Below, piece by piece: positions 43,170 to 62,023 of a stretch of 64,000 bases of DNA. Below the pieces are notes generated by a model. The model saw nothing but the letters and a program-made list of their open reading frames with translations, was not told the origin of the DNA and did not search any database. How positions within the stretch are numbered: position 1 is the stretch's first letter; each line of letters opens with the position of its first letter. The DNA lies in the NCBI GenBank assembly GCA_000002435.2, contig CM018790.1. The stretch is one strand, 5' to 3'. Position numbers and translations under genes: made by a program. The DNA comes from Giardia intestinalis. Lineage: Eukaryota.

Positions 43170-46100
43170 ATGGCGGACAACGAGTACACCCTTATTTCGC
43201 AGGTCTCTGCCACAGAAAACTGCAAAACTATGCTGGTTCAACATAATGGCACCGGGAATTATGCCTTTAAGTACTTTTATACCTCCTGGCCTGTTCCGAA
43301 TGCGCGCCTCAGGAGTTGCATGGACGCTTACCTGCAACTTACATGTCCACATATTATTCGCCTCCAGACATACTCCATAGATACAGCCTTCACCCTTGTC
43401 ACAGACATGACCAATGGGCCGAGCTTGCGTTCTCTCATTATTAAGCGTCGGATTGCCCAGCAATGGTTTACTTCAGTAGAGATTTGGCTGCTTATTACTC
43501 AACTGTTAGAAGGGGTTAAAGCCTACCAGAGCTTTTATGCTCGTGTAGGCGCAGCCGCTGATACGCCGCCCAATCTTTTTCTTTCCCCGTTCTTCATTCT
43601 TATAAGTGATGAAGAGCGGATGAAGCTTCAGATTACAGAGTTCTATCAGACCCTCTTACTTCCCAGTGTCCAACGGCTTTATGCCACGTCGGGTGTTGCG
43701 CCCCCAGAGGTTTCAAAGCACCTGCCCATCAGTGCTTCTGCAGACATATGGATGATCGGTGCAATTCTTTATGAACTACTGACTTTACAACAATTGGATC
43801 TAGATCGATTGATTGAGCTGAACAGTGATGTGGTCACACTGGCCAAAATTGATAATCTGTATCCAATAGATTATGAGCCCTTGGAGCCATACCAATCTGT
43901 AGCAGTATATAGTTTTCTTGATCATGGAAAAGCTTTTCGTTACAGAGAGCTCTATTCACTGCTCTCATGCATGCTCATCATAAACCCCGATAAAAGGCCG
44001 CCTGTAGAGCTCCTTTTAGATTACGCTCTATTGCACACTCCGGCTCTTGTGCAACCAGGATCACCAGGGTCTTCCCTTTCAAGGCCAGAAGATGGACATG
44101 TGCCAAGAGAAAAAGGAGGCAACGATGCAGCTATCCAGAGTTCTATAATAGTCGGGTCTGATGCTCCAGATGCCACTCTACAAAATACTCTTCTTGTTGG
44201 CGTGAAAACGGAGTTGCACAAGGCCGTCGAAGAAAACAATCTTGACAAATTGTTTATGAACCTCCAGTTTGCACGATCTACCGACATAGACGGAAACACC
44301 GCTCTTGTATATGCCATAAAGGCTAACAATGAAGATGCAGTGAAGATCTTGGCACAGGAGGAAATCGGCGTTCTCACAGGAGAGGGATATTCTCCTCTTC
44401 ACTTAGCTCTGCTTCTCAATCACATACAGCTAGCGAAGTATCTAGACGCCTCCTACGATCTGCAGTTTCTTCATGGGGTGGAGCTATGGGTTGATGAGCA
44501 TGGGGTTAGTAACCTAATGCGCTGCGTTTGCGAGCGGAATCTCGTTGGGGTATACTATTATTCAGATAAGCAACAGAAGTTGCAAGATTATGACGGCAAG
44601 ACTGCTCTGATTAAGGCTGTGTTGAATTATAATGAAGGACTCCCTGCCGGCCAGGAAGACGTCAATCTGGCAATTATAAGGCTCTTGCGATTGCACGAGG
44701 CAAGAATACAGGATAAGCGAGGGCGCACAGCACTAATGTACGCTGCAGAGTGTGGGTATCTAGCGGCCATTGACGTCCTCTCCGGCTCTGAGGCGGGAAT
44801 GCGCGACAACGAGGGTCACAACTCCCTTGAAATGGCGTTCTCCAACAGAAAACTCGAGGCTGCACGGCGGATGCTTCTATTGGAGCCGGTTCCCCATTCG
44901 TGCCCCGACCGCCAGGGACTCACAGACCTAATGAAGGCATGCATTGAGGAAGATGCTTTTTCGCTTTTCTGCCATATGACGCAGACCAGAGCCACAGATA
45001 TTAATGGTAATACAGCCCTCATGCACTGCGTTATTCACGACCGTCCAGAATTTATACCGGAACTCTCTGAAGAGTATAGAATGATTAACAGAATCACAGG
45101 GCATAGCGCTATGATGCTAGCAGTCCAGCTGGAGAGGCGTGCATGCTTTGAGGCCCTTATTAAGCATGAGTCCGGGCTTAAGTCCTCTAGCGGAATGACA
45201 GCGTTGATGATGTGTGCATCACAAGGCCTTAGGCCCTATGTCAATCGCCTTTTGAATATCGAGACCAATATCTTCAATGGCACGTGGAACGCAATGACGT
45301 ATGCAATAGCTGCTAACCATCACGAGATTATCGGCCTTTTGGCACCGTTAGAGCTCAACCTCTCAGCAGTGCTTAAGGACTACGACGCCCTCACTGACAC
45401 AGCCGCTGAGATTCAGCAGGAACTGGAGGGTGCTGCGTCTAGTGTACGATCCACAATATCTCTTAACTCAGGATATACCCCGCTTATGTTTGCCGCCCAG
45501 CAGGCGAACATAAACGCTGTGTGGGGACTAAGAGACAAGTATCTTGGTCGCAAAGATCAGCACGGTTTCACAGCTCTGATCTATGCCACTCGTGTCAAGT
45601 CCTTAGAATGCTGCAGGCTTCTGGTTGATGAGCGAGACATATTGTGCAATCAAGGCCTTTCTGCTTGGTTCTACGCCTATCAGAACGGATATCATGAGCC
45701 ACTGGACATAATCCGTCCCACGATAAAATATGCTAACACAGAACATCGGCTGACAGATCTTCATATGCTCATCCTACGGAATGAAGTGCCGCTGAGTTCG
45801 GTTCAACCAGGAGGTACTGTGTCTTCATCCTTGACAGCAGACAGCACCGTGCGTTCGAGTTCTGCAAAGTCTTCACTGCACCATAGAGACCCTCACGAGG
45901 GCCTTCAGTCAACTTATACACCTAACCGCTTCAGACGCAGTCAAGTAACCACCTCAGCCATTTTGTGTCCTAAGGAGTTATCAAACACTAGCAATATGAT
46001 ATCCTTAGAGTCCTCTCTTGTGCTTCCAGAAGACCCACCAACTAAGACGCAGCCAGATTATCTACAAGATGTTTCCACTCTTCTTTATCTGACAAAGCTG

Positions 46101-48026
46101 TATACCAAGTCTGGTGAAACAGCCCTTATGCTAGCGGCAAAGAGCTACAGAGGTAAGATGGACAAGAATCTACTCGCTCTCGAGGCAGGAATGCGGGATT
46201 CCTATGGAAGATTGGCATCGTGCATTGCCATAGAGCGTGGAAACACAGAGTTTCTCACTGAGGTTCTTCCGTATGAACGGGATGCTCTGATTGCAGATGG
46301 ATTCACAGACCTAATGCTTTCTATTCTTGAGGATGATTATGTTGCCCTGATGCACCACCTTAAGAATCCAGAACAGCAATGCGGTCAAGTCGTCATGTCA
46401 GCTTACACTGCGCTTAACATTTGCATATACTGTGGCAAGAATACGCTTATACCGCTTTTTCTGCCCTACGAAGCCGACATAGAAATCCACGACAAGCTTA
46501 AGCCGTTGGACCTCGCCTATGCGACCCGCAACGTCGAGGCCATACTTCTCTTAATGCCTTACACATACACGGGAGGGCGACTGGCACTCTCCCAGTGCCT
46601 TTCCAACCTCATTCGAGCAGCCATGAAGGAGCAGCGTCTTTCAGATACAAGAGCATATGACCTTCTAGCAGCATTTCACAGCTCAAACTATCGCCAGCTC
46701 AAGGAGGCTCTTCAGAGTAACGACATTCAAAGCATGAAGGCGTTCAAGGAGCTGGCAGATAGTTTCCAGGCCGTTGCTTTGAATATTGAATACCTTGTTC
46801 TCCCAGACGCTGTCTTTGATGACAATGGAAACTCTCAACTACACATCGCTGCCCTGGCTGCAGATACACGTCTTGCAGCTGCGTTTGTACATCTGCATAG
46901 TTTGCGCAACAAAAAGGGAGAAACAGCGCTCATGCTCGCCGCTCGAAGCGGTTCTGAAGCCGTGGTCGACATCCTTCTAAACTACGAGGCGGAGATGCAG
47001 GACAACAACAAAATGACGGCAACGGAACATAGCATTGTGAGCGGCACATTCCACAAAGTTCTGAACCTGTATACACGGGAGAAGGCCTTTCTCGTTAACG
47101 AGTGTGAGCTTTCTCCTCTCATGCTTGCTGTTTTGGAAGGAGACATTAAAACTGTGAGCGCCGGCCTCAAGTATGCAAAGCTGCGCACATCGTCTGGAAT
47201 GACTGCTTTGCATATGGCTATCTACCTCCGGCAGCAAGCACACGCCAATCTCCTCAAGATGGAGAAAGGAATCCTCACATACGATGGCTTGTCACCGTGG
47301 TTCTTAGCTAAAGAGAAGCGCATGGCACATGATTTCTTAGAACCTGACTCCACGGTAGATGCATTGGGCTGTACAGAGCTCCATCGGGCTGCAATCCAGA
47401 ACAATTCGCAACAAGTAAGGAACTACTTACCTCTTGCGCAACAATATAATGCAAATGGTCGCACCTCTCTTATGGAAGCGGCTCTTGCCGGTTCACTAGA
47501 CGCCGCGAAGATACTCGTCGACCATGAACACGGAATGCGGGCAAGGGCCCGTTTCGTTGTGGGCAATAGCTACTTTGATGAAGCCACTGCATTAATGTTT
47601 GCTGCCGCTGCAGGGCATGAGAGCATTGTACGGCTTCTGATCCCCTACGAGTGTAAGATGCACGAGTCGTGCAACGGAAAGACGGCGCTGATGGCTGCCG
47701 CGGCAGCGGGTCACCTTTCCACCCTTAAACTCCTGATTGATAGCGAGGGAGGGCTTACAGGCCAAAATGGCTGGACCGCGCTGATGTCTGTAGTCTCTAA
47801 GCAGTACGTTGATTGCGTCGCTCCCCTGTTGGAGAAGGAGGCAGGAATGCGGGATTCTCAGGGAAACTGCGCTCTTGTGACAGCAATAAGCAACGGGAAC
47901 ATGGACATCGTACGGGTGTTAGCTCCAATTGAGGCGAAGATAATGGGGAAATCTACTCTCATGCGCATCTGGAAGAGCAACATAGCATACGACGAGATAG
48001 TTCGGTATGTTAACAAGCTACTATGA
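43170..48026 (+). CDS. ankyrin-repeat protein (protein 21.1 family) with an N-terminal NEK-like pseudokinase domain, 1618 aa
   Basis: About 40 ankyrin units of the Giardia type (GNTALVYAI..., GRTALMYAAECGYLAAIDVL..., GKTALMAAAAAGHLSTLKLL...). The N-terminal 230 aa have a kinase fold (YAFKYF..., LITQLLEGV..., APPEV...SADIWMIGAILYELLT) but lack the GxGxxG, HRD and DFG catalytic motifs. ATG 24 bp after the Dim1 stop. Confidence 0.8.
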   Translation: MADNEYTLISQVSATENCKTMLVQHNGTGNYAFKYFYTSWPVPNARLRSCMDAYLQLTCPHIIRLQTYSIDTAFTLVTDMTNGPSLRSLIIKRRIAQQWFTSVEIWLLITQLLEGVKAYQSFYARVGAAADTPPNLFLSPFFILISDEERMKLQITEFYQTLLLPSVQRLYATSGVAPPEVSKHLPISASADIWMIGAILYELLTLQQLDLDRLIELNSDVVTLAKIDNLYPIDYEPLEPYQSVAVYSFLDHGKAFRYRELYSLLSCMLIINPDKRPPVELLLDYALLHTPALVQPGSPGSSLSRPEDGHVPREKGGNDAAIQSSIIVGSDAPDATLQNTLLVGVKTELHKAVEENNLDKLFMNLQFARSTDIDGNTALVYAIKANNEDAVKILAQEEIGVLTGEGYSPLHLALLLNHIQLAKYLDASYDLQFLHGVELWVDEHGVSNLMRCVCERNLVGVYYYSDKQQKLQDYDGKTALIKAVLNYNEGLPAGQEDVNLAIIRLLRLHEARIQDKRGRTALMYAAECGYLAAIDVLSGSEAGMRDNEGHNSLEMAFSNRKLEAARRMLLLEPVPHSCPDRQGLTDLMKACIEEDAFSLFCHMTQTRATDINGNTALMHCVIHDRPEFIPELSEEYRMINRITGHSAMMLAVQLERRACFEALIKHESGLKSSSGMTALMMCASQGLRPYVNRLLNIETNIFNGTWNAMTYAIAANHHEIIGLLAPLELNLSAVLKDYDALTDTAAEIQQELEGAASSVRSTISLNSGYTPLMFAAQQANINAVWGLRDKYLGRKDQHGFTALIYATRVKSLECCRLLVDERDILCNQGLSAWFYAYQNGYHEPLDIIRPTIKYANTEHRLTDLHMLILRNEVPLSSVQPGGTVSSSLTADSTVRSSSAKSSLHHRDPHEGLQSTYTPNRFRRSQVTTSAILCPKELSNTSNMISLESSLVLPEDPPTKTQPDYLQDVSTLLYLTKLYTKSGETALMLAAKSYRGKMDKNLLALEAGMRDSYGRLASCIAIERGNTEFLTEVLPYERDALIADGFTDLMLSILEDDYVALMHHLKNPEQQCGQVVMSAYTALNICIYCGKNTLIPLFLPYEADIEIHDKLKPLDLAYATRNVEAILLLMPYTYTGGRLALSQCLSNLIRAAMKEQRLSDTRAYDLLAAFHSSNYRQLKEALQSNDIQSMKAFKELADSFQAVALNIEYLVLPDAVFDDNGNSQLHIAALAADTRLAAAFVHLHSLRNKKGETALMLAARSGSEAVVDILLNYEAEMQDNNKMTATEHSIVSGTFHKVLNLYTREKAFLVNECELSPLMLAVLEGDIKTVSAGLKYAKLRTSSGMTALHMAIYLRQQAHANLLKMEKGILTYDGLSPWFLAKEKRMAHDFLEPDSTVDALGCTELHRAAIQNNSQQVRNYLPLAQQYNANGRTSLMEAALAGSLDAAKILVDHEHGMRARARFVVGNSYFDEATALMFAAAAGHESIVRLLIPYECKMHESCNGKTALMAAAAAGHLSTLKLLIDSEGGLTGQNGWTALMSVVSKQYVDCVAPLLEKEAGMRDSQGNCALVTAISNGNMDIVRVLAPIEAKIMGKSTLMRIWKSNIAYDEIVRYVNKLL

Positions 48027-51525: not shown

Positions 51526-53220
51526 TCACACGCTTTTTCCATCGCAACTGAAGATGTCATCAACGCGCAGGATCATACAAGCATTTTCTATAGCGGCCTT
51601 GAGGACCTGCAGCTTTGTGCTCAGTGGGTCCCAGATGCCCTGCTCCTTGCAGTTGACGAGGAGCCCTGTGACCCCATCGACACCCAGCTGACAGTTCGGG
51701 TCACTGGTGTGGGCAGCCTTGAGCTCGGTGATGGTCCTTATTATATTCCCACCGCAGTTCTGCAGCAGCGTCCGTGGGATCACCTCCAGGGATTTGGCGA
51801 CTGCCTTAATGACAAGCTGAGGCTTTCCGACAAGGGTGTCTGCATACTGAGAGAGTGCCGTCGACAAGTGAGCCTCAAAACAGCCTCCGCCAATGACCAG
51901 GCGCGGGTCAAGGATAATATTCCTGCACACGTGCATGGCGTCCTGAATGTTCCGCTCTATCTCCAGCAGGGTGCTCTTGGAGGCGCCTCGAAGCACAATG
52001 GTACAGGCACTGGCCTTACCCCCAGATTGGTGGATGAAGGAAAAGAACTCGTCACCGATCTTCTGGAGCTCATAGAGGCCTGCGTATGTCCCCACATCAC
52101 TTTCTTGAAGCTCCTCCACGCGACTGACAATGGTGGCACCGGAAACTGCCGCAAGGCGCACGTTGTCTGTCTTCCTGACGCGCCTGAGGACTGTCACGCC
52201 GTGCTGGACAAACATATGAGTCGCCTGATCCGCCACACCCTTCTCGGTGATGACCAGGTCGGGCTTGAAGCTGAGGATCTTCTCCACGTGGGTCCTAATG
52301 TAGTCTTCTTCGACCTTGAGTATGTCTCCTAGATCAGACTTCCCTTGGAACAGCTCTACGTTCATCATTGATTGGGCCTTCTTGTACTCTAGAGGGCAAT
52401 CCAGAAGAAGTATGCGGGGATTCTTGATGTACTTCCTCATATCGGGGTGAATGACATCCTTATTAAGCACTACGCCATCGATGACGCAGCAGTCCTCCAC
52501 AGTCGCACCAGGGATCTTCTCTATGCGGCAAAACCTCTTAATATCAATGTCAACTGAAGCACCAAGCTCTGCTTCATCCCCTTTTGAACGCGCATCCTTA
52601 GTGACACCCACTAGACCCTTGCGCACCTCCGCTCCACGTCCTCTAGCGACTATGCTGACCGCCTCGAGCGCAAGGTTGCACATGAGATCCATCCATCTAC
52701 TGACAAACTTCGTGGATAGCGAGTTCTTTAAAACTGTCATAATAGGGCCTGCCGCCTCAGACTTCAGACCCAGGATCTCTATGCCCTTTATATTTATTTC
52801 AAATGAAGATCTTTCTGCCTCACTCAAAAGAAAGTCCAAGGCTTTCTGGTATCCCTGCGTAATGAGAATAGGATGTATCCCACACTTGAGAAGGGGCTCT
52901 GCCATGGCGATCACCTCCCCTGCCAGGATGACAACGCTTGTGGTGCCGTCTCCGACTTGCTCCTCCTGGGCCCGTGAAACCTCCAGCATGGCCTTGGCTG
53001 CGGGGTGTGCCACGTCGAGCTCGCGCAGGATGGCGTTCCCGTCGTTTGTCATGACCACGCTCCCCATTGAGTCCAGGATCATCTTGAGCATGGAGCGTGG
53101 GCCCATCGTTGTCCTGATGACGTCTGCGACTGTCTTACTTGCCTTGATGTTGTTCATGCGGGCCATTTCTCGGCGCTCGCTCTCGGTGCCTTGGCTCAGG
53201 ACATAGACTTGGGGCTGCAT
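51526..53220 (-). CDS. CCT3: T-complex protein 1 subunit gamma (CCT3), 564 aa
   Basis: Group II chaperonin motifs: TNDGNAILRELDVAHPAAKAMLEVSRAQEEQVGDGTTSVVILAGE. The N-terminus aligns specifically with CCT-gamma (VLSQ.T.RE.G......NI.A.KT.AD.IRT..GP.SM.KM.LD.MG). ATG start. Confidence 0.9.
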   Translation of the reverse strand: MQPQVYVLSQGTESERREMARMNNIKASKTVADVIRTTMGPRSMLKMILDSMGSVVMTNDGNAILRELDVAHPAAKAMLEVSRAQEEQVGDGTTSVVILAGEVIAMAEPLLKCGIHPILITQGYQKALDFLLSEAERSSFEINIKGIEILGLKSEAAGPIMTVLKNSLSTKFVSRWMDLMCNLALEAVSIVARGRGAEVRKGLVGVTKDARSKGDEAELGASVDIDIKRFCRIEKIPGATVEDCCVIDGVVLNKDVIHPDMRKYIKNPRILLLDCPLEYKKAQSMMNVELFQGKSDLGDILKVEEDYIRTHVEKILSFKPDLVITEKGVADQATHMFVQHGVTVLRRVRKTDNVRLAAVSGATIVSRVEELQESDVGTYAGLYELQKIGDEFFSFIHQSGGKASACTIVLRGASKSTLLEIERNIQDAMHVCRNIILDPRLVIGGGCFEAHLSTALSQYADTLVGKPQLVIKAVAKSLEVIPRTLLQNCGGNIIRTITELKAAHTSDPNCQLGVDGVTGLLVNCKEQGIWDPLSTKLQVLKAAIENACMILRVDDIFSCDGKSV

Positions 53221-53308
53221 TTTTTATTAAGGCAGTTTTTTGCCACTCTGTTTACTCTGCTCAGGCAGGCTGACGCAATAGTGCACTGGTATTCATGTTA
53301 TGGGGATC

Positions 53309-55037
53309 TCACATAGACGGGAACGAGAGCCCTCTGCTGTCCTTCTTCTTGGGCCCGGCATATGAGGATGTGAGTCTGCTCATTAAAAAATAGAAACAAT
53401 ATTGCTGTAGTTTTGTCTCTTGGCGATGTCGAGGACCGTGGTACCAGGTGGAAAGCATCGATCTTTGCAGGTAGTTCTCATATCCCTCTCCCTTTCCATA
53501 AGTAGCTTGGCACACTCTGTTTTGTAATGATACACTGCCTTCATAAGAATGGTCTAGCCAGTGGTACTCTGGATGCCAGCTTTTTTGTCCATCAATAGCT
53601 TAACACATTCTGAGTGATTATTATGCGCTGCATACATGAGCGCAGTTTGGCCATGTCAATTTTTCATGCCACCTTCGTGCTTTATTAGCAATGTAACCAC
53701 TTCTGTGTGCCCATGCACCGCTGCTAACATCAACGCTGTCTCTTCGTATCCATTCCATCCACTTATGTCAAAATACTTCGCTGTCTTTCCCTTTCGGATA
53801 GAAATAAAACGATTCACAGCCTCCATATCCCGCATTCTACAGCCTGCATGAGCCTGGTGACGCCTTTATTATCTGTCGGATCAAGGAGCTCCACAATATC
53901 TGTGTGCTTCACTAACAAAGCAAGCATCATCGTGGTTTTACCATTGCTATTCACCCCATATTTACCAGACAAATACTCCAATGCAGTGCTCTTGGAAGCA
54001 GCGCTTGTGAGCAGAGTATATGAGAAATCCTGTATAGCTGACTCCTAAAATCCTTTCTAGAGTCATTTATCTCTCCTGATTTGAGGCTAAGGCTGTTCTC
54101 AAGAGGCTCGATCTCCGATTAGCATTGTCTAGAGCAGCCTCTAGTGCCGTGACTCAAGCCCGTAGTCTTCCTTTTAGAACACCAGATTCTTGAAGCAGCC
54201 TACCAAGCTCCCTGGCTGTTGGTCTTTGAGTGGGGTCTAGAACAAGCGCTTTCTTGAGGATACTCCTTATGAGGTCGTCTTCAACTGCACTCAGGCTGAG
54301 CCTTTGCCCATCAACGAAGACATTCCTCGGGTGCTGCTCCCAGGAGATTAGGCATTTGAAAGTGAAGAGCTCATAGGCGGTAGCACCGAAGACCCGACGT
54401 CGAACGTAGGGCCGGTCTCGTCCCTGAGGTGGATCTCGGGAGCCATGTATGCTTGGTTCCCAAAATGGCACTCCCATTGTGCAGGACATCCTTGCAGAGC
54501 CCGAAGTCCGCAAGAGCTGAGCCTGCCATTTCTGCTGACATCGACTTTGTCGGGGTCGTGAAGGTAGGTAAGGATGATGGCGATCTGCTCCATGATGGAG
54601 AGCACTGTATCGGTAGGGTTACCGGTTCTTGCTCAATCGGCAATCACATCTTGAGGCACCGATCTCAGCGGTCCATGATGATGAAGATGGAGTGAGCGTC
54701 TCTGAGCACCCGGTAGTGCCTAATGACATCTAGGTGTGAGCGTCTGGAAATGGTGGCCAGCGCGACCCAGTGGCCTCCGTGAGCTTCCCACTCTGAGTCT
54801 TGGATAGCCACCTATCACATGGACAGTACCAAAGCTGCCCACATCAAGCACCCCTCCTCGCATCGATGCAGCTCGTCGGCGGGCACAGGATATCGAGTGC
54901 ACCGTCCCCAGCCATGACGGTGTCAACGGCGCTGTGCAGAGCACGCTCGGGGGCAGGGAAGCGGCCACCCCTGCTCCCGGTTGCTGGCTGGCTGGCGAAG
55001 TACATAAGGCGCACCCGCTTGTCGGCAGCTGCACCAC
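53309..55037 (-). pseudogene. decayed NEK-kinase / coiled-coil / ankyrin-repeat gene, inverted paralogue of the plus-strand gene at 56947..59030
   Basis: A kinase N-lobe fragment (GGVLDVGSFGTVHVIGG), catalytic and activation segments (ADFGLCKD..., AYMAPE, PTQRPTARELGRLL), a coiled-coil fragment (LEAALDNANRRSSLL) and ankyrin units (GKTTMMLALLVKHTDIVELLDPTDNKGVTRLMQAV, TALMLAAVHGHTEVVTLLIKHEGGMKN*HGQTALMYAAHNNHSECVKLLMDKKAGIQSTTG*TILMKA...PGTTVLDIAKRQNYSNIVSIF). They are spread over at least four frames, with in-frame TGA and TAG stops. Confidence 0.6.
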
Positions 55038-55047
55038 TAGTGACGCG

Positions 55048-55053
55048 TTTACT
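55048..55053 (-). promoter_or_regulatory. putative polyadenylation signal AGTAAA of the VSP gene
   Basis: The minus strand reads TAG-ATGTACTTAGGT-AGTAAA, matching the Giardia AGTPuAA consensus 12 nt after the stop. Confidence 0.35.
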
Positions 55054-55065
55054 ACCTAAGTACAT

Positions 55066-56277
55066 CTACGCCTTGCCCCTGCAGATGAACCACCAGCAGA
55101 GGAAGCCCACGAGGCCCCCGACGACAACGATGACAGCGACGGAGATCCCCGCGATGGCGCCGGTAGAAAGGCCGCTCTTGTTCGTGCTACCGCCATCTTT
55201 CATGAGGTAGCAGAGAACGGGGCCTTGATTATTAGATGGGGGAGCGCAGCTCGCGCAGTTAGCGACGCCCTGAATGTTATTGCTTGTCTCTGTACACAGC
55301 TTGCATGCTTTACTGGCGTCCAAGTAACGGCCAGGTGGACAGGCGCTGCACTTATTGGGCTGATTAGCTTCGGTGCATGTCGCACAAGTGGAGTCGCATA
55401 ATGGACACATGTTCGAGACAGCTGTCAAGCCATTCGCACACGTTTGGCATTTTCCATCCCCAGTGGGCGTTGTGCAGATGCTCTTCCCGGGGAGCCTCGT
55501 CGTCTGGTAGCACCCGCCCTCCTGGATGAAGTATCCGGCGGCGCAGACCGTGCAGGCACCGTTAGCGGCAGTGGTGCAGAACCGAGTCCTGGCCGCATTG
55601 CTTGTGCAGACGCCATTGAGCGGCACGTTGTTCCCCTTGCACTTCGAGCAGTACTTGGTACCTCCAATTGTTAGGCCGCACGTCTCGCACTCCGGGCCCT
55701 CCACGCATTGCTCCACGCACGTGCCGTCTGTAGGATTGCTCTCGTCGGCGTACCTCAGCATCTTCCCGGCGGGACAGGCCGTGCACTTGGAAGCGCCGGC
55801 CCCGCTGCACTCCGCACAGGAGGGGTCGCAGGGCGCGCACGTTTGTCCGGATAGATACGTTCCGACAGGGCAGGCATCTAAGCATGCCTTCTTCGTCGGG
55901 GTCAGATGCTTTCCTGGTTCACATTCTTCGCAAGTCTGCTTGTCCGGGGAGCACGTCTGGCAGTTCACGATCGGGCAGTCGGCCTGCGGCGTGCACTGCG
56001 TCCCGTCGTCGTTGGGGTCGAAGCCAGGGCTACACGTCTCGCACCTTGTGTTGTCGCCAGAGACGCACTGGGCGCAGTTCTGGACTCCGCAGTCGGACGC
56101 GGGGTTCTTGGTGCACTTCTTCGTGGTGGGGTTGAGGGTGTAGCCTGAGCCGCACGTCTTGCACTGCTGGGGGTTGCTTTCCTCGCAGACATCACAGCCC
56201 TCGACCTCGCACGGCGCGGTCTTTTCGTTGTGCTTTGCCAGCACGGTTGCACAAACTAGGAGAAATCCTACCAACAT
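55066..56277 (-). CDS. variant-specific surface protein (VSP), 403 aa from the first ATG
   Basis: Signal peptide MLVGFLLVCATVLA. About 25 CXXC pairs. The GGCY motif (IQEGGCYQ). The invariant VSP C-terminus GLSTGAIAGISVAVIVVVGGLVGFLCWWFICRGKA. The ORF-track start at 56334 is a GTG; the ATG is at 56275-56277. Confidence 0.9.
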   Translation of the reverse strand: MLVGFLLVCATVLAKHNEKTAPCEVEGCDVCEESNPQQCKTCGSGYTLNPTTKKCTKNPASDCGVQNCAQCVSGDNTRCETCSPGFDPNDDGTQCTPQADCPIVNCQTCSPDKQTCEECEPGKHLTPTKKACLDACPVGTYLSGQTCAPCDPSCAECSGAGASKCTACPAGKMLRYADESNPTDGTCVEQCVEGPECETCGLTIGGTKYCSKCKGNNVPLNGVCTSNAARTRFCTTAANGACTVCAAGYFIQEGGCYQTTRLPGKSICTTPTGDGKCQTCANGLTAVSNMCPLCDSTCATCTEANQPNKCSACPPGRYLDASKACKLCTETSNNIQGVANCASCAPPSNNQGPVLCYLMKDGGSTNKSGLSTGAIAGISVAVIVVVGGLVGFLCWWFICRGKA

Positions 56278-56946
56278 TAGCCGGAGTTCGTATGCCACTG
56301 CTCTTCTGTCAGGCCGGTGCGTTGCCGCGAGCACTGAGAGACAGCCGCTCTTGCTCTCTTGATCGGTTGGACTGGAGAGGGATAAGATAATAGCACACCC
56401 ACCGGAGGCCGGCTGATGGCACGGTTCCCCCTGGCTTCGATAGGAACAGGACCAGTGAGGAGTAGACTCAGACCGTGCCTCTCTTGTGGAATGATTGATT
56501 GGGGTGCACTCTTGTACATTGCTGTCACTGTATCACTGGGCCCACCTGCAGGTGCGCTCAGAGGCCTCACGGGTAAGCTGCGCCCACTTCTCGACCGTCC
56601 GGAGACGATGGCTGGTTGTGGATAACATACTAAAAGCTCCTCTCCATCGATGCATCCAGAGCTCAGTGTCGTCCCGGTCGGCATACTCTGTCGGGGCACT
56701 CCGCGTCGGCCTCCAGGGTTCGGCCTGCTCAGGGCCATACGAGCCGCTAATGTGCCCTCCTTGGCCTGCCATCAGCAGCTCGCACTAGGCGCCTTACTCA
56801 GGCAGTAGCCAAGGCCACTCCAAAGGGTGGCTCCGGATTGCAGTTAAAATCAGCGGCGGCTGTTGACTCCACTCCCTATCCCAGCTGCCGCAGAGGGTGT
56901 CCTGGGAGACGCTAGTAACAGTGCAGTTAGCGGCTTTGCAGGGCCG

Positions 56947-59030
56947 ATGGGCGTTTGGGGAGCGTGCTCAGAAGGGGCCTTCAGTGTTATCTACTCTCTC
57001 AGGGGATGCCCCCACCTCATTGTGAAGGAGATCCGGCTCGACGGTCTGGGTCAGCACGGTGTGGATGCTAAAGCGTGGGCTGACCGCTCTTTTTATCCTC
57101 TTTCACCCGGGGGTCCTCAAGTACCATCAAGTGATTGAAGACGAGGGCCTTATCTATGTCGTCACGGACCGGCACAGCAGGACTCTTGACAACTTCCTCA
57201 CCGAGCACAAGCGAAGGAAGATCCCCGTGTCTGCCGGCGTGATCCTCTCCGTCATGAAGCAGGTCGCCGCCGCCCTCGCCTACCTTCACAGCGTCAGTGG
57301 GGCAAACACTAAAGGCCTCGTCCACTGTGACCTCAGGCCTGCCAGCATTCTTATCAGCGCAGACGGAGAGCGCTTCATCATCGCCGACTTCGGCCTCTGC
57401 AAGGACGCCCTGTGGAGTGAGAGCACTCTCATAGGAATAATGGCGTACATGGCCCCCGAGGCGCTCCTCCGTAATGAGGCCAGCCCCGCCTCCGACGTAT
57501 GGAGCCTCGGGGTCATCATTTATGAACTAGTAACTCTGAGGAGACCGGACTTCTTGGGGGGCAAGGAGCCGGCAGAGGTCTTCGTCGACGGGTGGAGGCC
57601 GGACCTGAGCGGTGTCGCTGATGGCTTCATAAAGAGTGTTCTGGAGAGGATATTCGTGCTGGAGCCAGAGAGGAGGCCGACGGCCAGGGAGCTGCACGAG
57701 ACGTTCGCTACATTCGACATCCCAGTTGGTGAGCTGAGGGCTCAATACGCGGTGCTGAAGTACGAATGCGGCTCCTTGGAGGCTGCGCTGAATGGCGCTA
57801 ACGCCAGGATCGCGCTGCTGGAAGAGGATGTTAAGACTAAATCCACTAAGATCGACGCACTCGAAGACCAAGGTAAGGAACATCTAGCCATGATTAAGGC
57901 ACTGGAGAGTAGGCTTGCACAGTTCAGTGACAGGATGAACACGGCTGACCCTCAGTCCAGCCTCCTTTTGCTGCCCAGGCTGATGCGTGCCGCGCATACG
58001 AACGGCATGGAGACCGTCCGGATGCTGCTTGAAGAAAGACTCGGTGTTGGTCAGCGCGACGCACAGGGGCACGTTGATCCCGTCGAGTTGTTTGTTGGGG
58101 AGGAGAGGGGCCTCCAGGACAAGAACGGCTGGACTACCTGATGATCGCCACAGAGGAGGGCTATGCAAGAACTGCCTCCCTTCTGGTCCCATATGAGAAG
58201 GACTGGATCGACAGCGAAGGCAAGACGGCCTTGGTGATTGCGGCAGAGGCAGGACATGAAACTGTGGTGGAGGCCATCGACCCAACCGATGAGAACGGCG
58301 TCACGGCGCTCATGCGGGCTGTTAATAGAAATGATGTGGGGGCTGTAAAAGCACTCTTACCCATCCAGAGGGGGAGGAAAACATACAAAGAGGTCACAAT
58401 AAGCGGATGGTACATGGGCAAAGGAACAGCTCTGATGGTGGCTGCGGCAAGTGGACACGCAGAACTAGTAGAACTGCTAGCAGAGCACGAAAAGGGGAGA
58501 AAGTAGGCGGTTGGGCCGCTCCCGTATTCGCGGCACTGTGCAATCGTTCCAATGACCCCCTGGTGGACTATATTGGGCACGTTGAGCTTTTGATGGAGTA
58601 TGAGAGCAGTATCTCAGGGTGGACGGAGCTCATGTATGCAGCAGCACGAGGGCACGAAGGAATCGTAGAGCTGCTCAAGCAGGAGACTGGCATAAGGAAC
58701 AACGAGCATCAGACTGCCCTCATGTGGGCAGCACGCAATGATCATCCAGAGTGCGTCAGGCTCCTACTGAAGGACGAAGGCGGCATGCAAACGACCAAGG
58801 GCTGGACCGCTCTTATAAACGCAGCATATAGCAACGCCGTGGAATGTGCAAGACTTCTTAAGGAAAACGAGAAGGAGCTGAAGACAATTTCTAGCTGCCA
58901 TGATCACTCGCCCGGTACCACTGTCCTCAGTATCGCTAAGAAGAAGGATCGCAAAGAGATAGTAGGCATCCTCCCAAACGAGATCTGCTCTTCTTTATCG
59001 AGGTCGGCTTGCCAGCTCCTGTCCGAGTAA
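56947..59030 (+). pseudogene. NEK kinase / coiled-coil / ankyrin-repeat (protein 21.1) gene broken into four reading frames. It is either a pseudogene or carries sequence errors
   Basis: Segments: 56947..57138 (MGVWGACSEGAFSVIYSL...IVKEIRLDGL, kinase N-lobe); 57059..58141 in another frame (HCDLRPASILI, ADFGLCKD, YMAPE, coiled coil, first ankyrin); 58141..58506 in a third frame; 58407..59030 in a fourth. At 58135-58145, ...NGWTT*MIATEEGY would read GWTT-L-MIA if one base were restored. Confidence 0.5.
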
Positions 59031-62023
59031 ACCCGTCCAGGATCCGAAGCTTAGATGCCGCCCACTCTGGAGAAGAGCCTTGTGCATCCCGCCTGGAAGC
59101 CGTTGGGTGCTCCACTATGCATTCCGGAGCGTCTCTCCTCTCTGACTGGCTTGGGTCAACCATCGTCTGACATCTAGTGAGCACCCGCTGTCTCGGGCCT
59201 TGCGTCAGTCGTGGCGATCCAGTCTCGAGAGCAGTTAACTCTGGCCATGTACTCTGGAGTAGCTTTGTGGCCCTGGTGCTCTACGACGAGGATCGCACGC
59301 CACGACCCCGGGTGTCGACTCCCGTTCCTCGGGGTGCCTCTTCATCTTCTCGTGGAGGGCACCATCTGTTCCATTATCAAGGATGCGCTCCCCGTGTGCC
59401 TCTATCCTGGAGTCATAGTACGCATTCGTGGATGCCGATGGAGTACTCTTATACGTTGTGTCGGGGGAGAGGCCCACCCCTCTGCTCATGGATCGCAGTG
59501 CGCTCTTGCAGGTGGTCCGTCACCCAGCACGAGACCGTGTCGACGCTCACCCTGTGCAGTGCGTCTGGCTCAGTGACCTGTGGGCTGGTCCATCTGCACT
59601 GCACAACACACTTGGGGGGAATGATTCGGTCTGTCGAGGCGTCGTCCAAAGCATCACGAGCGATCAAGACCGGTTCGCCGTTAGGCCGTCTTTCTCTACA
59701 CCGGCACCCGTCTACTCGAGGGTGTCAGGTACTGCCAGCTGCTGTAGTAGACACCCAGCAGGTGGCCCAGACCACTACTCCTCGGTGCGGACAGGATCAG
59801 TCCGCCTCTGCCAACCAGACACCCCAGGAGCCCCATCTCTTGTCGAGGGACTCACATAGGCCACGTGTGGGTCCATCTCGACCAGCGGGGCGAGTGATTA
59901 GTGCCATCACTGGCTTCAGGTTCTCTGCTGCCTTGAGGGGTCCTTCGAGACCAGCCAGGAAGAAGGCCTCCTGCTCCTCTGTGCTCCTACACCCAGTGCT
60001 GACCGTCGAGCCATGCTGCTTCCCAGGCCTGTCGCCTCTGTGACTATCCTCGCCGCGTCACTGTTGTCGGCATGGGCACTGAGTGGGGTATCTCCTCAGC
60101 TCCCGATGAGCAGGTTCTGTCCCGCGCAGTGTGAAGGCATACTCAGGGCCCCGAGGGACCGAATCCAGGGGTGCAGCGTGTCGCAGCTGAAGGAAGGCCT
60201 CGACGCAGCTCCTCGGGACTACCTTGTGGAGCGAATCATGATCGTCCATTGATTGTGGTCGCCCTGTCTCATTCTTGAGGAAGGACCAGGCGGAACCGTA
60301 CAGAGCACGCATCCCATCCTATGGATCGCGCTGAGGATCTCGTTGAAGGCCTGCACCCGGATGGACTCGCCAGCGCAGACCCGGGGACTTCGAGCCCCGT
60401 GGACTGGCCGTCCGTGCTCTCCGATGGCTGAGGGGCTCGTGTCCCTCAGGGGCCAGGCCGTCCTGATCCGGCCCCTCTGGATAGCAAGGTTCTGGTCGTC
60501 GGTGGCGCTGTCAGGGTGCAGCTCCCCCTCGAGGCGAGGCAGAGGCTGCAGGCCGGGCAGTGGGGTGGTGACTGTTGCTCCTCTGCTTCCCCGCTGTGTG
60601 GGGAGGCACGTCTCCTCGGCTCTCGACTGGAGCTCTGCGGGGTGTTAGGTACCCTCCCCTGAGCACGTTCGCACGACGGGCGCTGAGGGGGATTTCCTTC
60701 TCTATCCCCGCTGCCCCACTCAGCAGCGCCCTGCATCCGGTGTCTGTGCTGCATGCGTCTGGACGGCCTCACCGCGGAGGGTTTTCGCGCAGGACAGGCA
60801 CGTGCTCTTCCGTTCCTACTAGTTCAACGTTCGCCTGGTGCCACTACAGCGTAGGGCGCCCCTCTCCATCAGGTTCCTAAGATCCTCGTTCTCGCTGTGA
60901 TACCTGATCTCTCCCCCGTGAGGGGTGGGGTCCACGGTGCACTGGTGTGTGTCCGGGACGATGCCCCCTCATGGAGCTCTGCAGGTTCCAGGACCCTCTG
61001 GGGACAGCCAGCAACTGGGACCCCTGCTGTGAGCTAGGTTGAACTAGCTCCACCGGGCCACGAGCAGCTTCATGGCACTCTGGTGTTGCTGGTCTCTCAA
61101 CCGCACATGCTTGGCCTGTCCTAGCAGATAGTGGGGTCGTGCCTGAGTACTTTCGAGGAGTCTGGGAAGCGCTCCGGTCCGATGCTTTCTATCCAGAGCA
61201 TCGCGACGGGCAACGGTGAGGGCCCGCGTGGGACACCGCACTTGGGCACCAAGGCTCGGTGTGCGTGAGCTGGCACCGTCTGTCGGTCGAAAAGCTGCAG
61301 AAGGAGCAGCAAGAGGAGCCCAAAGCGGGAGAGGGTTCTCCAGACGTGCTGCTCGAGACCCTTTAGAAGTCGAAAGAGACATGGCAGGAGACGCAGAAGT
61401 GGTCGAGTGGCTCTTCGTGCTGTGGATCGCGTAGGAGGTCCCCGAGGGCGCAGTCTCTTAGTGAACCTGGCGTTCTTGAGCCAGTTCATGTAGTCAGCGA
61501 GTGACCCCTTCAGGGCTAGGTGGTCTCCTAGAGAAACGGTCATTGAGGGCCTGCCACCATGCGCCGCTCTCCATGATAGGGAGATTCAGCGGAGAGAGGT
61601 GTGGGGCCCCTTACTCATTCTATCGGATGCTTTCCAGACTCCATTCTTCGAGCCCCTGAGAACCTTCCTCGGCAGCTCGCTCGTGGGAGCGGTTGCCGGT
61701 CTGCTGCTTGCTGAGGGCTGGGCGTCGGGGCTATCAGCTTTCCGTTTGGGCTTCTTCTCCCGCCGGAACTGGATGGCACTAGATTCCTGGACCCTAGGTT
61801 CGAATGTCGAACAGATGAGTGAGAGAAGACCTGCCTGGTGTGGCGACTCGCACGGAATTTGCTCGGACAGATTGTCTAGAGGTTCCCCAATGGAGTTAAA
61901 TATCTCATAGATTGATGATTTTAGAGACAACAAAGGTGGCAAATTTCAGAGATGAGTGGATTACGCCGGGTGGTTTACTCAAGCTGCAGCTACCAAGATT
62001 CTAGTTAAAGCTCCTACCTTAAG
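59031..62023. other. GC-rich, ORF-poor region of about 3 kb between two convergent genes. No recognisable coding or RNA feature
   Basis: The region is visibly more GC-rich than the flanking genes. The longest ORFs are 84-288 aa, overlap in all six frames, are R/S/P/G-rich with low-complexity translations, start with non-ATG codons, or lack AT-rich initiators. Confidence 0.3.

Follow-up and report, generated by a model that had tools for sequence, protein, structure and literature searches.

The question raised by this locus is whether the DNA that separates a VSP gene from the TCP-1 (CCT) gamma gene in Giardia intestinalis holds a dead kinase gene, as an earlier note made from the sequence alone had proposed, or whether it encodes something that only appears to be broken or is retained for another purpose. 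We addressed this in a window of 64,000 nucleotides (the whole stretch of DNA that was analysed), which exact protein matches assign to G. intestinalis WB clone C6 (ATCC 50803). The region, designated here as NEK1psi, is almost certainly a non-functional, duplicated but non-processed Nek-GL4 pseudogene of the kinase/coiled-coil/ankyrin type, which is located in an island specific to assemblage A, is drifting neutrally and was probably co-duplicated passively with VSPs. The coordinates of the features discussed below are collected in Table 1. The intact CCT gamma gene forms a conserved anchor directly downstream, the pseudogene ending 160 nt from the CCT start. On the other side, the translation of the VSP terminates in FICRGKA and the protein has the Cys-rich CXXC ectodomain, transmembrane segment and CRGKA tail of its family. 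CCT gamma and the VSP carry consecutive accession numbers (KAE8302410 and KAE8302411), which suggests that no protein-coding gene separates the two in the 2020 annotation. The small ORFs within and next to NEK1psi were formerly listed as the "hypothetical proteins" GL50803_124827, GL50803_106673 and GL50803_114590; those that can be traced are now represented solely by old XP or MetaClust accessions, with none in the KAE series.

Table 1. Features of the NEK1psi locus and its surroundings (positions are those of the window).
Feature	Position	Strand	Remarks
Intact NEK, 1618 aa	43170..48026	+	Exact-sequence match
TCP-1 (CCT) gamma, intact	51526..53220	-	XP_001708669 / KAE8302410; exact protein match to WB
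NEK1psi-VSP-NEK2psi block, 5.9 kb	53258..59154	.	Missing from the corresponding site in P15 (assemblage E)
NEK1psi core	53383..54863	-	From G-loop Met codon to terminal TAA (53385-53383), followed by TGA
Seven degenerate TALM-type ankyrin units	53386..54029	-	Alignment to P0004/P0009; Pfam Ank_2
In-frame TAG, IQSTTG(stop)TILMKAVYHY	53554..53556	-	Trp of GWTxLM; TGG in L017, L018, L019 (P0164, P0169)
In-frame TGA, HEGGMKN(stop)HGQTALMYAAHNN	53656..53658	-	Ankyrin Trp codon; TGG in L017, L018 (P0169)
Frameshift site	53814..53837	-	ECGIWRL(stop) in one frame, R-DMEAVNRF in another; common to every lineage examined
Coiled-coil linker remnant LEAALDNANRRSSLL	54100..54144	-	Frame 2; aligns to kinase-ankyrin linker of P0004, P0009
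In-frame TGA, RLRA(stop)VTAL	54154..54156	-	Precedes the coiled coil; WB-like sequences have the stop here (54156), AII-like lineages two codons upstream (54162-54160)
AYMAPE (APE motif)	54435..54452	-	Frame 0; frameshift between DFG and APE
ADFGLCKD (DFG motif)	54488..54511	-	Frame 1
Catalytic-loop deletion, about 20 residues (HRDLKPxN)	54520..54560	-	Between YLHDPDKVD and ...ADFG; alignments to P0004, P0009
In-frame TGA, VIAD(stop)ARTG	54633..54635	-	Not reported as a stop in DH; also a stop in Manning's GK431
In-frame TGA, FIIMDR(stop)DR	54665..54667	-	Not reported as a stop in DH
Glycine-loop remnant GGVLDVGSFGTVHVIGG	54807..54857	-	Frame 0
5' extension of NEK1psi unit	54864..55031	-	Frame 0 open; no kinase homology
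AGTAAAC, putative VSP poly(A) signal	55047..55053	-	12 nt past VSP stop; in spacer
VSP gene, intact, 403 aa	55066..56277	-	XP_001708666 / KAE8302411; Pfam VSP 1.2e-119
NEK2psi, second broken NEK-ankyrin gene	56947..59030	+	Manning G076 / GK123 / GL50803_137728, Nek-GL4 pseudogene (PMC3218828)

The core of NEK1psi was delimited by three-frame translation, Pfam matches and frameshift-aware alignment to two intact NEK-ankyrin kinases, P0004 (683 aa, G. duodenalis) and P0009 (685 aa, isolate P15). These proteins share with NEK1psi a colinear arrangement of kinase, coiled coil and ankyrin repeats, but their frames are open, they retain the HRDLKPxN motif and neither is a positional ortholog beside CCT gamma. 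After frame correction the NEK1psi translation matches Pfam Ank_2 (3.6e-31) and Pkinase (4.7e-10; 39.7 bits against a cut-off of 31.7 bits), and single ORF fragments also match Pfam Ank. A tblastn search with 16 intact Giardia NEKs, a check proposed in the earlier note, gave matches in three frames with E values down to 2e-48, and together with the Pfam match identifies a protein-kinase domain related to the Giardia Neks. The C-terminal part has the GL4-type order of a coiled coil followed by TALM-type ankyrin repeats, seven of which align to P0004 and P0009 where the note had counted "six or more"; the coiled coil itself is a probable assignment, made from alignment to the linker of the intact paralogs. 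The five ORFs into which the note had divided the gene (54720..55037, 54371..54643, 54348..54605, 54154..54513 and 53309..53515) are all present on the minus strand, as are the peptides that it quoted, which follow one another in order over three frames within the stated coordinates. Its statement that no ORF of 60 aa or more spans 53516-54153 is correct for the minus strand only, as ORFs of 71 aa (53636..53851) and 66 aa (53848..54048) are present on the plus strand.

The kinase homology begins at the G-loop (Met codon 54863), whereas 55037 is only the GTG start of a mechanically called ORF. The true edge of the unit lies near 55031, as set by the DH copy, whose distance from the VSP stop of that isolate is likewise 35 nt, and by a paralogous copy (L027) that is 94% identical, begins at window position 55031 and has an unrelated upstream flank. 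The 5' extension between this edge and the core may correspond to an N-terminal or 5' region of ancestral origin. What is left of the kinase domain is not catalytically competent, because the HRDLKPxN loop is deleted, the DFG and APE motifs are in different frames and the VAIK-type lysine motif "VKE" that follows the G-loop in NEK2psi and P0004 reads VGS (in RLRVGSS), with loss of the Lys.

To list the lesions we wrote a protein-to-DNA aligner with frameshift states and used the intact P0004 and P0009 as references. Against P0004 (45% identity over 461 codons) it reports 13 lesions, comprising five in-frame stops and eight frameshifts, the latter near 54762, 54658, 54518, 54454, 54392, 54114, 54037 and 53834; there is an additional frame change between the G-loop and the next segment. 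Against P0009 the path is slightly different, with six frameshifts and six stops, among them TAA 54069-54067, without any change to the overall conclusion. The earlier note had pointed to two stops in the middle of ankyrin units, TGA 53658-53656 and TAG 53556-53554; both are there, as single G-to-A changes of an ankyrin Trp codon (TGG to TGA and to TAG), and they form part of a longer inventory that includes the frameshifts, the remaining stops and the catalytic-loop deletion. Relative to intact homologs, NEK1psi thus carries multiple disabling lesions.

The locus has already been described. Manning et al. 2011 (Genome Biol 12:R66, PMC3218828) extended 30 fragmentary WB predictions to kinase pseudogenes, 29 of which belong to Nek-GL4, a subfamily with fast turnover, and Table S1 in Additional file 1 contains the row G115 / GL50803_106529 / GK431 / Nek-GL4 / class C / "Pseudogene" with five Pfam ankyrin repeats. 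GK431 was put together there from a number of GiardiaDB ORFs. Every residue of its printed sequence agrees with the translation of the window, as do the stops that follow RRRCT, TPRCH and VIAD, and on this match NEK1psi is GK431 (GL50803_106529), the Nek-GL4 pseudogene of WB; its placement in GL4 is taken from the Table S1 row for the identical sequence (PMC3218828). The published version consists of long single-frame stretches, in which frameshifts are unlisted and the missing catalytic loop is unremarked, and it offers no isolate comparison, unlike the present analysis. The SAGE columns for GK431 are blank (PMC3218828). NEK1psi is probably not expressed, although it may conceivably act as a non-coding RNA or through a short peptide. 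The gene identifiers of the locus were not found in the main texts of the literature, and neither this published entry nor the close pseudogene paralogs of NEK1psi in WB had been noticed in the earlier note.

These paralogs are GK427 (GL50803_101380), GK428 (GL50803_15206) and GK430 (GL50803_113450), whose 5' parts are near-identical to that of GK431 and share its scrambled catalytic region, the stop after TPR(C/R)H and, further upstream, a VSP C-terminus translated out of frame. In their published form these copies either are shorter or cease to match beyond the kinase C-lobe (in GK430, past ...ARELVRLLQA), and only GK431 among the four has the coiled coil and seven ankyrin units. A close intact paralog or ortholog was also sought; the best identities were 30-49%, with no protein above 50%, and for the 5' half the search for a parent gene returned only a 162-aa fragment ORF (P0191, on L027) and a P15 NEK that is 39% identical.

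It might be argued that the gene is intact and that its stops and frameshifts are errors of sequencing or assembly in a single genome. The region is indeed repetitive, and every short-read contig breaks within 54235-54471 because the 5' part of GK431 recurs almost unchanged in GK427, GK428 and GK430; the same copies explain why a 47-aa ORF is present twice in the old WB proteome. The WB-specific 5' lesions (54518-54762) appear only in the window and in Manning's GiardiaDB 2.3 sequence, which has the same stops but may derive from the same assembly. The 3' half, on the other hand, is base-for-base identical in at least seven independent Illumina-based assemblies: seven short-read Logan assemblies from different SRA runs show 100% identity to the window over 53221-54342, and one of them reaches 54471. 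The core frameshifts are common to DH, L024, L025, L017 and L019, and a deletion of some 20 residues in the catalytic loop is incompatible with homopolymer error. With these observations the sequencing-error reading is effectively refuted, and we give it a negligible chance of being correct. The decay is mutational and not annotation noise, as the earlier note had maintained, a view that is borne out by the independent assemblies, the polymorphism of the lesions, the neutral codon spectrum and the prior curation as GK431.

Comparison among isolates separates old lesions from recent ones. For the AII isolate DH (AHGT01000024, L021), the alignment with the window extends from 55224 to 43656 at 98.1% identity, and the isolate has the same pseudogene just as far from the stop of its own VSP; over the aligned 53221-55224, 6.1% of positions differ and there are four small indels. 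This alignment has no large indel at the catalytic-loop site, so the deletion is common to DH. When the aligner was run on each lineage, the frameshifts near 54454, 54392, 54114 and 53834 were found in all lineages examined. Compared with the DH inventory, the frameshifts near 54762, 54658 and 54518 and the stops at 54667 and 54635 are confined to WB, whereas DH, L024 and L025, which are separate assemblies with 8-10 lesions each, show in their place a frameshift near 54856 and a stop at 54722; lesions are also present in L017 and L019. Both quoted stops are polymorphic. The ORF P0169 (L017, L018) reads ...GGMKNWHGQTAL... and ...SITGWTALMEAV..., with both Trp codons intact, and only the second Trp is restored in P0164 (L019). 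The distribution of these changes is not tree-like, in that the DH-like L017 has neither stop, DH has both and the WB-like L019 has one, and it requires either that the mutations recurred or that the lineages recombined. Being polymorphic, the two Trp-to-stop sites might be of use as markers within assemblage A.

The substitutions that separate WB from DH are distributed evenly over codon positions in NEK1psi (24/23/28; chi-square p=0.76), compared with 3/3/16 in CCT gamma and 9/5/16 in GL50803_17412. Divergence is 5.3% in NEK1psi as against 1.3-1.4% in these two genes. This pattern, together with nonsense and frameshift lesions that are polymorphic between isolates, indicates that NEK1psi has been free of coding constraint since before the AI/AII split, and it makes the pseudogene a clean yardstick of the neutral rate beside an essential gene. 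The same evidence bears on whether a surviving short ORF might still be useful, for instance the 150-aa, four-ankyrin ORF of some isolates (P0169) as a small ankyrin-repeat protein. This ORF is open in six contigs of AII-like isolates and matches Pfam Ank_2, and Giardia encodes hundreds of ankyrin-only proteins. In WB, in DH and in over 100 further contigs, however, it is truncated to pieces of 59 + 84 or 59 + 53 aa, NEK1psi substitutions show no third-position excess, and the traceable old small ORFs of the block have dropped out of the KAE series; we regard a coding role for it as very improbable. GL50803_124827, GL50803_114590 and GL50803_106673 should not be counted as genes.

From these comparisons, a Nek-GL4 gene copy located between a VSP and the essential CCT gamma gene would have become non-functional before the split between sub-assemblages AI and AII, with the catalytic-loop deletion and the frameshifts near 54454, 54392, 54114 and 53834 as the ancestral lesions. 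Later neutral drift would have added lineage-specific frameshifts and nonsense changes, among them the two Trp-to-stop mutations, leaving a sequence that probably encodes no protein and has no activity of its own. Its 5' part belongs to the small family of near-identical WB pseudogene copies represented by GK427, GK428 and GK430. Each published WB copy is located after a VSP 3' end, so that at least this 5' part was probably a passive passenger when VSP 3' flanks were duplicated.

The junction with the VSP requires closer inspection, as the earlier note had placed the 3' processing signals of the VSP inside the dead gene, which it took to start 30 bp after the VSP stop. The VSP stop (TAG 55068-55066) is separated from the ORF start at 55037 and the unit edge near 55031 by a spacer of 28-35 nt; only the latter, 35 nt past the stop, is a real boundary. 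The consensus poly(A) signal of Giardia mRNAs is AGTRAAY. The heptamer AGTAAAC in the spacer is very likely the VSP's own signal, judging by its position: AGTRAAY is found within 100 nt after the stop in 10 of the 29 long ORFs compared with 2.3% of random windows, an enrichment that exists only relative to stop codons, as the window as a whole contains 31 occurrences with 27 expected. Because AGTAAAC is upstream of both 55037 and 55031, the VSP signal is not inside the dead gene as had been claimed. At most, the cleavage site of the VSP transcript would abut the edge of the pseudogene.

A further alternative is that the DNA is kept as functional non-coding sequence, either as a VSP 3' flank module that acts in duplication, recombination or silencing, or as upstream control of CCT gamma. 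Manning's table shows that GK427, GK428, GK430 and GK431 each come after the C-terminal coding part of a VSP and are interrupted by the same stop following TPR(C/R)H; identical tail-to-tail VSP pairs have 318-559 nt of 3' flank in common with 2.4-3.2 kb of "non-coding" DNA between them, and the 3' end of NEK1psi is close to the CCT start. Against this, NEK1psi diverges four times faster than its neighbours, P15 has CCT gamma but no NEK1psi, and there is no VSP in front of the copy on L027. Co-duplication is, moreover, expected from simple hitch-hiking, and we consider retention for a non-coding function to be quite unlikely. A narrower version concerns the VSP 3' end and the 5' NEK part (about 54190-55224), which may constitute a conserved multi-copy module with at least four copies in WB, each after a VSP, that perhaps fills tail-to-tail VSP spacers and offers a homology tract for VSP duplication, inversion or conversion. 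This is unlikely, but were it true the pseudogene would be retained as a recombination substrate and would not be mere debris. Neutral decay of a non-functional Nek-GL4 copy remains the preferred reading.

The VSP is flanked by broken NEK genes on both sides, a point that the earlier note had missed. NEK2psi is divergent from the VSP and resembles NEK1psi in its GL4 subfamily, its kinase/coil/ankyrin architecture, its location in the same island and its curation as a pseudogene. It is far less decayed, however, as the aligner reports three frameshifts and no in-frame stops, and HCDLRPAS and DFG are kept. A recent inverted duplication of the two around the VSP can be ruled out, the DNA similarity between them being just 69% over 116 nt.

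The block containing NEK1psi, the VSP and NEK2psi is missing from its site in P15, where NEK1psi has no positional ortholog. In the P15 contig (ACVC01000072, L020) bases 866-960 correspond to window positions 53257-53165 and bases 310-617 to 59452-59155, with 248 nt between them, so that the contig passes directly from the counterpart of 59155 to that of 53257. WB and DH are syntenic only as far as position 55224 within the VSP; beyond it, on the upstream side, DH has a different VSP of 603 aa and unrelated genes. The surrounding island (54.5-61.5 kb) is GC-rich (56-65%). The GC-rich stretch at 59.0-62.0 kb was considered as a decayed VSP or a known RNA, and was rejected when tblastn with VSP, Pfam and Rfam gave no match. 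The indel at 53258-59154 is not named in the portions of Franzen 2009, Jerlstrom-Hultqvist 2010 and Xu 2020 that were available to us. Published work describes GC-rich, gene-poor surroundings for VSP regions, and reports that breaks of synteny and indels in Giardia genomes are marked by VSP, NEK, Protein 21.1 and HCMP genes. The present locus agrees with these descriptions, being a GC-rich VSP and NEK island found in WB and not at the same place in P15, with draft-assembly contigs that terminate at the junction. NEK1psi is one of about 30 catalogued WB Nek pseudogenes, and its setting of VSP, NEK, GC-rich island and synteny break is a textbook one for the variable regions of the Giardia genome.

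The entire block formed by the VSP gene and the broken NEK genes on either side of it (53258-59154) is absent at the same site in P15 of assemblage E (L020, ACVC01000072, 1-960). The right-hand boundary of homology between WB and P15 (53257) coincides exactly with an AGTAAAC motif (53250-53256, minus strand), and the CCT-gamma ATG follows 30 nt downstream of the motif. Part of the GC-rich stretch listed in the table (59155-59452) is 72% identical to CCT-gamma-adjacent DNA of P15; no long credible ORF, Pfam match, Rfam match or VSP similarity was found in the stretch as a whole.

Synteny between WB and DH (assemblage AII) breaks off within the VSP gene (window 55224, corresponding to 8609 in L021, AHGT01000024), so that only the final ~160 nt (TM + CRGKA) are common to the VSPs of the two strains. 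At this locus DH possesses a 603-aa VSP with a differing body, and the genes upstream are unrelated to those of WB. Judged from this sequence comparison, the arrangement suggests that the VSP was swapped via recombination inside its conserved 3' end.

The two Trp-to-stop mutations in the decayed NEK/ankyrin pseudogene downstream of the VSP (NEK1psi) were compared across four loci (L017, L018, L019 and L021; sites 53656 and 53555). Both are present in DH; neither occurs in L017, whose CCT-gamma departs from that of WB by the same counts as that of DH, and the WB-like L019 carries the first but not the second. This pattern is not tree-like, which implies that either the G-to-A changes recurred or assemblage A lineages recombined with one another.

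Over 20 short-read contigs, assembled independently from different runs, all break off within 54235-54471 of this pseudogene, and the P15 draft contig likewise stops less than 1 kb from CCT-gamma. The interval is a repeat boundary that this pseudogene has in common with its paralogs, the pseudogenes GK427, GK428 and GK430. A contig from run SRR2642196 (L027, 1710-2018) contains a copy of window 54727-55031 that is 94% identical; the 1.7 kb upstream of this copy is not VSP and has no match among the other sequences compared, and thus the 5' end of the pseudogene exists at least once without VSP linkage. In the window, an ATG (55063-55065, minus strand) directly follows the VSP TAG (tagATG) and opens a 73-aa ORF. 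In the reconstruction of GK430 by Manning et al. (PMC3218828), the equivalent frame continues into the pseudogene through a frameshift. This ATG is possibly the ancestral start, or possibly a chance occurrence.

Features in and around the pseudogene block
Feature	Coordinates	Strand	Remarks
Antisense ORFs, 279 and 251 aa	51493-53206	+	wholly within CCT-gamma, opposite strand
73-aa ORF	54844..55065	-	in another frame
NEK2psi (broken NEK-ankyrin gene)	56947-59030	+	divergent relative to VSP
GC-rich stretch, 3 kb	59030-62023		GC 59-65%

In NEK2psi, which is identical with GK123 (GL50803_137728) of Manning et al., the reading frame shifts three times (near 57040-57076, 58103-58112 and 58504), and in-frame stops are absent. 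Its decay looks much younger than that of NEK1psi.

The long antisense ORFs are not genes but mechanical ORFs of the kind that this codon usage typically yields. The intact NEK at 43170-48026 (plus strand) was compared across loci L009-L016. It encodes 1618 aa in the window, DH and P15, but the called length is 1539 aa in 138 Logan contigs with otherwise WB-identical neighbours; either the choice of start codon in the call or a genuine difference at the 5' end could account for this. Both the CDC50 homolog and GL50803_17412 are broken into two ORFs apiece in the assembly of a single run (L014, SRR13990249, 2846-6290), reflecting either assembly errors or gene disruption in this sample.
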